From Escherichia coli (lineage in GTDB: Bacteria; Pseudomonadota; Gammaproteobacteria; Enterobacterales; Enterobacteriaceae), in NCBI RefSeq assembly GCF_003334255.1, contig NZ_QOWU01000229.1: a DNA stretch of 508 bases, one strand, 5' to 3'. The notes below the pieces were generated by a model. The model was not told the DNA's origin. It searched no databases and worked only from the letters and a program-made list of their open reading frames with translations. A program made the translations under genes and the position numbers. Below, one piece after another: positions 1-508 of the stretch; position 1 is the stretch's first letter; each line of letters begins with the position of its first letter.

Positions 1-108
1 TCCACCAGCACTCGAGGATTATGAAATATCTGTATGGATTCACGGCCCGGCTTAAGGACCACCAGCCCAAGCTCAGGCACCAGAACAGGTCTAAGTAATA
101 CCCGCACG

Positions 109-381
109 TTACCTCCAGATCCGTTGCTGGAAAGTGCGGGACGGACGTGGTGGGCGTTCGGAATAAGGCAGCCTGACAGAGATTATCCAGTGCCGATAGT
201 CGAGACTGAGAGCTTTCTTAACCTCGAACCCGCGCCTGCGGTAAGAATGAATCAGCCATTCGGCCTGTTCTTCAGTACATGGTGGGTGTTGGTACCAGTC
301 GGTTTTAAATGCGTGTGAACGCCGCTCATGCCGGATGGCAAGGTCGGTATCAGAATTGTGAAATTTGGTTTTGTGCGCCAT
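109..381 (-). CDS. hypothetical small basic protein (90 aa), family not recognised
   Basis: ATG at 381..379 and TAA at 111..109 on the minus strand. In the minus-strand sense it follows a terminator, promoter-like hexamers and a leader with a weak Shine-Dalgarno-like AGAG 6 nt before the ATG. Second-codon-position composition is gene-like (A about 34%) and the first ~70 residues have a balanced, hydrophilic composition. Against: first codon position is C-rich rather than G-rich, several rare Arg codons (CGG, AGG) and one ATA, and a Pro/Arg-rich C-terminal tail (SERPPRPSRTFQQRIWR) that looks low-complexity. Confidence 0.4.
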   Translation of the reverse strand: MAHKTKFHNSDTDLAIRHERRSHAFKTDWYQHPPCTEEQAEWLIHSYRRRGFEVKKALSLDYRHWIISVRLPYSERPPRPSRTFQQRIWR

Positions 382-390
382 CTGTTTTCT

Positions 391-405
391 CTGCTGGCGC
401 AGCAG
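391..405 (-). promoter_or_regulatory. dyad CTGCTG-GCG-CAGCAG in the leader (possible operator or leader hairpin next to the ribosome-binding region)
   Basis: Plus-strand 391-396 (CTGCTG) is the reverse complement of 400-405 (CAGCAG), with a 3-nt spacer. On the minus transcript this gives 5'-CUGCUG-CGC-CAGCAG-3' immediately 5' of AGAAAACAG-AUG, so the 3' arm abuts the SD-like purines. Confidence 0.3.
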
Positions 406-416
406 GTGTCAGGTGT
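403..416. repeat. perfect tandem heptamer CAGGTGT x2 (ACACCUG-ACACCUG on the minus-strand leader)
   Basis: Plus-strand 403-409 and 410-416 are both CAGGTGT. A third CAGG follows at 418-421, and CAGCAGG precedes at 400-406. It lies in the putative 5' leader, 22-35 nt upstream of the ATG at 381. Confidence 0.6.
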
Positions 417-432
417 TCAGGCTGACGTGCGA

Positions 433-462
433 ATTGTAAACCAGAATGCCAGGAAAAAACAA
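433..462 (-). promoter_or_regulatory. candidate sigma70-type promoter for the 381..109 ORF
   Basis: Minus-strand TACAAT (complement of 433-438, 5/6 match to TATAAT). The best upstream -35 is a weak TTGTTT (complement of 457-462, 18-bp spacer) overlapping the terminator U-run. The alternative TTTACA (complement of 435-440) as a -35 has no convincing -10 at 16-18 bp. No extended -10 TG. Predicted start near 426. Confidence 0.3.
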
Positions 463-480
463 AACCCGCCGAAGCGGGTT
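454..480 (-). terminator. rho-independent (intrinsic) terminator, minus-strand only
   Basis: Minus-strand transcript reads 5'-AACCCGC-UUCG-GCGGGUU-3' followed by UUGUUUUUU. Plus-strand 463-469 pairs with 474-480 (7 bp, 5 G:C), loop 470-473 is a C(UUCG)G tetraloop, U-run is the complement of 454-462. On the plus strand the same stem is followed by AAGUGCGGG, not a U-run, so it is unidirectional. Confidence 0.8.
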
Positions 481-508
481 AAGTGCGGGTGCGTTGAGGA
501 TGCCTGAC
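479..508 (-). CDS. probable 3' end of a minus-strand gene running off the right edge (partial, frame tentative)
   Basis: In the minus frame aligned to the window edge the sequence reads V-R-H-P-Q-R-T-R-T-stop, with TAA at 481..479 inside the terminator stem. The terminator implies a transcript arriving from the right. Only about 9 codons are visible and the other two minus frames are also open here. Confidence 0.3.
   Translation of the reverse strand, partial: VRHPQRTRT

Follow-up and report, generated by a model that had tools for sequence, protein, structure and literature searches.

The question raised by this prophage locus is what a perfect tandem heptamer and an overlapping dyad, both placed immediately upstream of a start codon, stand for. 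An earlier note had proposed there a structured leader, and had offered three explanations for it: a protein-binding operator combining the direct repeat with the palindrome, a leader hairpin that modulates translation initiation, or a slipped-strand duplication devoid of function.

The window, by which we mean the whole stretch of 508 nucleotides that was analysed, falls in the nin-like region of a lambdoid prophage of E. coli, whose genes lie on the minus strand. Its sequence is identical to a stretch in a lambdoid prophage of E. coli strain 4/0, and similar DNA is found in 4,531 of 5,426 complete E. coli genomes. Read along the minus strand, the order is hok/sok, a terminator, a gap of 81 nt, an ORF of 90 aa, a DUF968 gene, rusA, the antiterminator gene Q and a second terminator, with DUF968, rusA and Q in the DNA flanking the window. 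The leader, about 45 nt long, lies in the 81-nt gap, immediately 5′ of the ATG of the 90-aa ORF, and together with its promoter takes up window positions 382-462. The two terminators are near-identical (AACCCGC...GCGGGTT followed by a T-run; L001 6463-6480 and 3750-3769, minus strand) and flank the whole block formed by the ORF, DUF968, rusA and Q, and a scan for intrinsic terminators inside the operon found none. The features are listed below, where A1 is our alignment of 104 distinct leaders.

453..480, minus strand: intrinsic terminator of the hokD mRNA, with a stem-loop at 480-463 (7-bp stem, five GC pairs) and a T-run at 462-453, tail TTGTTTTTTC
433..462, minus strand: predicted sigma-70 promoter, with a -35-like TTGTTT at 462-457, an 18-nt spacer and a -10 TACAAT at 438-433
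408..426, minus strand: hairpin 1, with stem GUCAG (426-422)/CUGAC (412-408) and a 9-nt loop CCUGAACAC (421-413) whose core CUGAAC lies at 420-415
403..416, minus strand: tandem heptamer (ACACCUG twice), made up of the last four loop bases and the 3′ arm of hairpin 1, a spacer and the first three bases of the dyad
403..407, minus strand: single-stranded ACCUG (family consensus R-A-C-C-U), directly 3′ of hairpin 1 and conserved in A1
391..405, minus strand: dyad CUGCUG-CGC-CAGCAG, which shares bases with the 5′ arm of hairpin 3, so that the two cannot form together
374..401, minus strand: hairpin 3, UGCGCCA (401-395) with UGGCGCA (380-374), and a 14-nt loop holding a weak SD-like AGAG
109..381, minus strand: 90-aa ORF, first gene of the operon, with its ATG at 381-379, a 24-aa N-terminal extension and a phrog_1212 core
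107, minus strand: GTG start of the DUF968 gene, 2 nt past the stop of the 90-aa ORF

Residues 25-90 of the ORF match the whole phrog_1212 profile, of unknown function, and this was the only family found; searches of Pfam and NCBIfam gave zero matches. In Gifsy-1 the phrog_1212 core is a separate gene of 66 aa, 35% identical to the core in the window. The N-terminal extension is unrelated to DUF1367 except for Met-Ala-His. Since relatives place a DUF1367 gene between the leader and the core, the leader may have been joined to the phrog_1212 core through loss of that gene.

Several other observations concern the surroundings of the leader. A complete hok/sok toxin-antitoxin locus lies directly upstream, just past window position 508 (L001 6549-6873, with the hokD CDS and an Rfam sok match of 106.7 bits). 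On the hokD 3′ UTR and terminator there is a full-length match to isrK (RF01394) at L001 6459-6540, minus strand (window 459-508 and beyond), with 27.2 bits and an E-value of 0.002; it lies outside the leader, does not reach the gathering threshold of 50 bits and falls to 9.9 bits if cut by the window end, and it may reflect a shared terminator shape only. RefSeq annotates on the plus strand, at window 328-507, a hypothetical protein of 59 aa (WP_001112736.1) that runs antisense to the ORF start, leader, promoter and terminator; because the minus-strand elements are conserved there, it is probably a spurious call, an annotation that the leader result corrects. Two further repeats may be due to chance: an imperfect inverted repeat of 14 nt (86% complementary) at window 100-113 and 477-490, flanking the ORF, leader and terminator, and a 9-nt direct repeat, AAGTGCGGG, at 132-140 and 481-489.

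The tandem heptamer and the dyad

Both elements are really there. The heptamer CAGGTGT occurs at 403-409 and again at 410-416 of the plus strand, where TRF reports a repeat at 403-421 (period 7, 2.5 copies, score 31), and the dyad CTGCTG-GCG-CAGCAG at 391-405 adjoins AGAGAAAACAG and the minus-strand ATG at 381-379. The earlier estimate that such a heptamer pair is expected by chance about 0.03 times was upheld by 5000 dinucleotide-preserving shuffles, with a mean of 0.032 per window and at least one pair in 2.2% of them. Dyads with 6-bp arms and spacers of 3-8 nt appear 0.71 times per shuffled window, at least once in 45% of the shuffles. By these rates only the heptamer is somewhat improbable; a dyad of this kind would often turn up by chance.

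Homologous loci were gathered through the protein sequence of the ORF, with no selection on the leader, which gave 80 loci with 24 distinct upstream sequences. Among them, the perfect minus-strand pair ACACCTG ACACCTG is confined to the clade of the window, and other clades carry ACAACTG GCACCTG (most relatives) or ACAACTG ACACCTG, both differences mapping to hairpin 1. The segment has the same length in all 79 leaders gathered in this way, and exact scans of 2.9 million viral contigs for the one-copy and three-copy forms returned one unrelated high-GC match and none, respectively. The check proposed earlier, that of heptamer conservation and copy number in homologs, thus went against the repeat: restricted to one clade and constant in length, the heptamer is neither a variable nor a conserved repeat. 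We reject it as a functional unit, given its clade specificity and unvarying copy number, and the same lack of copy-number variation among close homologs leads us to reject a tandem-repeat or slipped-strand contingency locus. Judged from these alignments, the heptamer is a sequence accident, a by-product of ACAC-CUG occurring twice, with no role of its own.

The dyad fares little better. Its left arm is part of the conserved CUGCUGCGCCA, and its right arm is limited to the window's clade, where it arises because GCAGAG stands in the place of the CGGAG of most leaders. Perfect dyads are found in 120 of all 522 leaders compared (the perfect heptamer pair in 73 of them), and the dyad is retained in 73 of the 79 close relatives; one natural variant, L044, has CAGUAG in place of CAGCAG. 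In A1 the dyad helix (37-42/46-51) is 76.9% paired, with the fourth pair formed in 28 of the 104 distinct leaders and the third pair falling at a gap in 58, and the RNAalifold prediction for the same 104 leaders does not contain it. When the leader is folded, as the earlier note had suggested, as part of the window transcript from its predicted start, hairpins 1 and 3 are predicted, and the dyad, at -7.9 kcal/mol, is 3.3 kcal/mol weaker than the overlapping hairpin 3 and receives a pair probability of 0.003. A dyad so poorly paired across leaders and outcompeted by hairpin 3 is rejected as a conserved hairpin or operator; at most, the folding model would allow a transient co-transcriptional fold in the clade of the window. 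The leader upstream of the start codon is structured, as had been claimed, with the correction that the heptamer and the dyad are not its conserved features.

Hairpin 1 and the start-codon helix

Hairpin 1 belongs to the minimum free energy structure of the window leader (pair probability 0.99, -4.6 kcal/mol). In A1, 98.5% of its cells are paired, four of the five pairs have changed on both sides and one position shows five pair types. These values were reached by 0 of 500 shuffles, a statistic that overstates independence, as the sequences are related and often recombinant, and controls slid along the alignment were 20-38% paired. There are 21 different pairs of stem arms, 15 of them fully paired, around a nearly fixed loop whose core CUGAAC is invariant; within E. 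coli itself the second pair goes from U-A through U-G to C-G, and the Qin/K-12 type has another stem, GCGGGG/UCCCGC, round the same CUGAAC. A search of viral contigs with a pattern fixed on the loop and the start-codon helix, and unfiltered on the stem, gave 103 distinct matches, all except one (102) with at least four complementary flanking pairs. The loop is also fixed in sets picked via the downstream protein only, and the loci gathered via DUF1367 show the variants CCUGAACAA, UCUGAACAA/G, ACUGAACAC, UCUGAGCAA and GGG-CUGAAC-UCCC. The pattern of substitutions shows compensatory change maintaining hairpin 1 across the compared leaders as CUGAAC stays fixed.

RNAalifold, run on the 104 leaders, predicts hairpins 1 and 3 independently. 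In one subfamily hairpin 1 is down to 3 bp, and the thermodynamic z-scores of the window leader, -0.6 and -1.3, are unremarkable. The ACCUG-type segment is also present after the extra copies of hairpin 1 in L087 and L153. In the context met most often, of Salmonella/Klebsiella type (L092, L219 and many others; 37537-37785 in mEp237), the UGA within the loop of hairpin 1 is the stop codon of a small gene located after a dinI homolog, and the promoter lies inside the last codons of that gene. A search for a trans-acting RNA partner of the loop returned unconvincing GUUCAG sites in Gifsy-1, and IsrK is not complementary to it. No T-run follows hairpin 1, the dyad or hairpin 3, and the terminator scan reports 480-463 only; hence, none of the three is an intrinsic terminator or attenuator.

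The 7-bp stem of hairpin 3 takes in the U and the G of the AUG together with the next five bases, that is, codon 2 and most of codon 3. In the window transcript, from its predicted start, this helix is computed at -11.2 kcal/mol with a pair probability of 0.98. The Qin/K-12 type has CGUGCCA/UGGCACG, with two pairs changed on both sides, in one lineage only, and natural variants (GCG to GUG, A to G) keep wobble pairs. Otherwise the arms are almost invariant in A1, and thus mostly uninformative on pairing, most sequences having been gathered with a pattern that fixes both of them; therefore, the covariation support for hairpin 3 comes from that single lineage. The spacing between the arms varies by several bases. 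As modelled, the start codon lies within a stable and conserved helix, as in an RBS-sequestering structure, and the earlier suggestion of a leader hairpin modulating translation initiation comes close to the reading that these predictions favour. Moreover, the non-homologous first genes found behind the leader all begin with Met-Ala, indicating that the start of the coding sequence belongs to the module.

Promoter, relatives and extent of the family

In 118 of 119 distinct upstream contexts, hairpin 1 is preceded by a -10-like hexamer (with A2 and T6) whose end lies 3-12 nt from the stem, most often at 6 nt (76 cases), and in 116 of these 118 hexamers at least four positions match TATAAT. Together with the -35, a score of at least 9/12 is reached in 54 contexts, against 1.5 expected in shuffles, and an extended -10 TG is present in 34. 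These upstream sequences are otherwise unrelated, consisting of a terminator, the end of rem or the end of the small gene after dinI, so the promoter belongs to the module. Judged by -10 and -35 hexamers 16-18 nt apart, a sigma-70 promoter is thus predicted at a conserved position across the family. The window's own promoter is weaker, with a poor -35 (TTGTTT) and a score of 8/12, and was missed by a simple scan of the window that required 9. From its position, the start of transcription is predicted at around 427-425 on the minus strand. In one class of relatives (L097, L107, L144, L153 2270-2300, L277) the -35 lies inside an operator-like palindrome, TTGATTTTCCATAATCAA, and their promoters may therefore be controlled by a repressor.

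The closest known relative is the antQ operon of Gifsy-1 in S. Typhimurium (SL2582-SL2579), which also ends in Q and scores 67.7 bits. Its leader reads ACUGG-CCUGAACAA-CCAGU, a spacer and UGCGCCA-CGGAGAAUACCA-UGGCGCA, with the ATG inside, so that both the loop of hairpin 1 and the arms UGCGCCA/UGGCGCA are shared with the present family, and those arms are identical to the ones in the window. The promoter is homologous (TTGACT-N18-CATAAT, 6 nt before hairpin 1), with a good -35 where that of the window is poor. The leader precedes a DUF1367 gene, followed by phrog_1212, whereas in the window the leader is joined to the phrog_1212 core with no gene in between. About 1,606 nt separate the end of the -10 from the antQ ATG further down, and a start site of the operon SL2582-SL2581-SL2580-antQ has been mapped 1,600 bases upstream of antQ, a figure given only in that form and not base-resolved, in a paper that names the operon and the start site and leaves the leader undescribed (PMC4825925). 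Judging from this site and the conserved distance between -10 and stem (mode 6 nt), the predicted 5′ end of the transcript falls on the first paired base of hairpin 1 or on its neighbour.

The leader is carried by all 80 loci gathered via the DUF1367 protein. We built a covariance model, R1, from A1. The window matches it with 74.2 bits (E about 1e-19), and in contigs from one genome per species the model finds 18 clearly separated matches, which score 54-77 bits and come from Enterobacterales without exception: Escherichia albertii, Citrobacter, Enterobacter, Kluyvera, Leclercia, Pluralibacter, Pseudescherichia, Silvania, Serratia and Pectobacterium. Of the other matches to the pattern, the six listed by cmsearch (E up to 0.001) do not exceed 30 bits. 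The pattern is GC-rich, so most of the 120 stretches listed are chance matches in high-GC taxa, and filtering by hairpin and model is needed. Among sequenced phages the leader is present in Gifsy-1 and Gifsy-2, SEN34, SPN3UB, mEp237, FSL SP-016, a Klebsiella phage and a Citrobacter phage.

The promoter-leader module is conserved, and the operon behind it is bounded by terminators and ends in Q. The module sits at mosaic joints, where both the flanking upstream sequences and the downstream genes differ; the same terminator, promoter and leader stand in other phages behind unrelated upstream genes (L039-43, L068, L074-76, L086). In L087 (2226-2294, 3109-3166, 3967-4032) and L153 (2301-2366, 3405-3470) there are two or three promoter-plus-hairpin-1 units on one strand, about 0.9 kb apart, each preceding a different small gene, and one of them again directly after an intrinsic terminator.

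For the leader, Rfam 15 gave no match at E up to 1 (L001 5800-7400) or up to 10 (the Gifsy-1 leader and window 340-508), other than noise such as mir-3075 at 12.7 bits. Full-text searches of the literature, based on the loop sequence, on DUF1367 and on STM2620/SL2582, brought up no account of it. The family thus appears to be undescribed, though 5′ leaders of its kind, acting in cis and pairing the start codon in a helix, are familiar, and the R1 model could seed an RNA family.

What the leader may do

We consider it rather probable that this element is an undescribed cis-regulatory leader of the prophage Q operon, limiting translation of its first gene and possibly Rho read-through as well. 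Transcription would start at or beside the first base of hairpin 1, and hairpin 3 (-11 kcal/mol) would keep initiation on the first gene at a low level. With little translation, the early transcript, C-rich and G-poor, would be exposed to Rho, and little transcription would then reach Q in the lysogen. Hairpin 1, flush with the 5′ end, would protect the transcript and/or dock a factor that reads the invariant loop, shifting the balance on induction. As to composition, a region where C exceeds G runs on the minus strand from window position 430 to about 240 (C 27-37%, G 16-21%), covering the leader and the first 140 nt or so of the ORF; it is rut-like, which would expose the early transcript to Rho when untranslated.

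Layouts of this type have precedents. In the com/mom system of phage Mu, a stem buries the start signals, and a small protein opens that stem by binding an adjacent upstream hairpin. By analogy, this arrangement would match that of hairpin 1 followed by hairpin 3, in an unrelated sequence. Closer to the present locus, in the IsrK-orf45 system of Gifsy-1 an RBS hairpin keeps a transcribed operon untranslated until a trans-acting RNA opens the hairpin (PMC4825925). The type of prophage and the silencing through an RBS hairpin are the same, but IsrK-orf45 lies downstream of Q and has another sequence and another structure. As for Rho, indirect support comes from ydfU of the K-12 prophage Qin, a DUF968 homolog: the Rho-dependent terminator that precedes it ranks among the strongest measured in vivo, though in a different prophage with a diverged leader and in a study that does not place the terminator at the leader (PMC9160355).

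Among the rival explanations, the one that survives best is a passive 5′ stabiliser, in which hairpin 1 does no more than shield the 5′ end from RppH and RNase E, with a loop that nothing reads. Hairpins at the 5′ terminus, such as that of ompA, do stabilise E. coli mRNAs, and the start predicted for the leader, flush with the stem, would put hairpin 1 within a base or two of the 5′ end, as in the ompA type. Such a cap, however, needs no constraint on its loop, and it leaves the strongly constrained loop, with its fixed CUGAAC and the RACC beside a variable stem, unexplained. We give this explanation a low probability.

A second rival would make of hairpin 1 an antitermination RNA, boxB-like or put-like, that loads an N-type protein or acts itself on the polymerase, allowing read-through to Q and beyond. 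Like the nut boxB elements of lambda, P22 and phi21, hairpin 1 is small and promoter-proximal and conserves its loop rather than its stem, the boxB hexaloop of phi21 (CUAACC) is a U-turn loop of similar appearance, and the two or three units per strand in L087 and L153 could be taken in the same sense. But the 9-nt loop is not a GNRA-like pentaloop, and the complete genomes of Gifsy-1 and mEp237 each hold a single copy of the leader, which belongs to the nin/Q operon; behind their early promoters, PL and PR, there is none. The leader has no boxA, the sole match with at most one mismatch lying at 487-480, upstream of the terminator, and being equalled in 55 of 200 shuffles. In addition, no intrinsic terminator was found inside the operon, and the leader is paired with different Q families. 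With boxA at chance level and one copy per genome in Gifsy-1 and mEp237, a lambdoid nut site is rejected, and antitermination in general seems to us quite unlikely. Resemblance to a LexA box, mimicry of a tRNA anticodon arm and mimicry of an RNase P substrate are ideas that we take to be unsupported for this leader.

Equally hard to sustain is the absence of any function, with the heptamer as a slipped-strand duplication and the conservation due to recent ancestry or to a recombination "linker" at a mosaic boundary. The clade specificity of the heptamer, the position of the leader exactly at mosaic joints between differing neighbours and the ordinary folding z-scores all speak for it. Against it, the scans of viral contigs turned up no length or copy-number variants, and the constant length of the segment across homologs tells against the duplication by slippage that had been suggested. 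A neutral linker, moreover, would not keep 5 bp through 21 stems, nor a -10 hexamer in 118 of 119 contexts, and we regard this reading as quite improbable.

The DNA operator proposed earlier, here taken as the dyad, alone or with the direct repeats, bound by a repressor of the prophage or by the ORF product so as to block the promoter or elongation, is very improbable: it has in its favour a perfect 6-bp dyad between predicted promoter and start codon, kept in most close relatives, and the operator-like palindrome of some distant ones, which lies over the -35 and elsewhere than the dyad, but chance would supply 0.7 dyads of this size per window, the right half is unconserved outside the clade, so that conservation of both half-sites in sequence and spacing is lacking, hairpin 1 conserves complementarity between freely changing arms and not half-site sequence, a signature of RNA or single-strand pairing, and the variable spacing of the hairpin 3 arms is unfit for a dimeric DNA binder.

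Returning to the cis-regulatory leader, a more specific and more tentative version would see in it a dedicated riboregulatory switch of many enterobacterial prophages, where a host or phage factor reads CUGAAC and RACC, opens or stabilises the start-codon hairpin, and so decides between translation and abortion of the transcript by Rho. Once Q is expressed, a lambdoid prophage is bound for lysis and, if it is an Stx phage, for the release of toxin; the textbook control of Q runs through PR and N. Here, a terminator upstream insulates the Q operon, whose own promoter is followed by a leader that is strongly conserved. If the switch is real, it would be a control point on Q, and hence on lysis and the release of phage-borne toxins, independent of the PR/N cascade. 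The leader may also tie the silence of Q to the Rho-dependent silencing of prophage genes, and a defined element of 50 nt with clear mutational targets (loop, stem and start-codon helix) makes the silencing of Q testable in both cryptic and active prophages.
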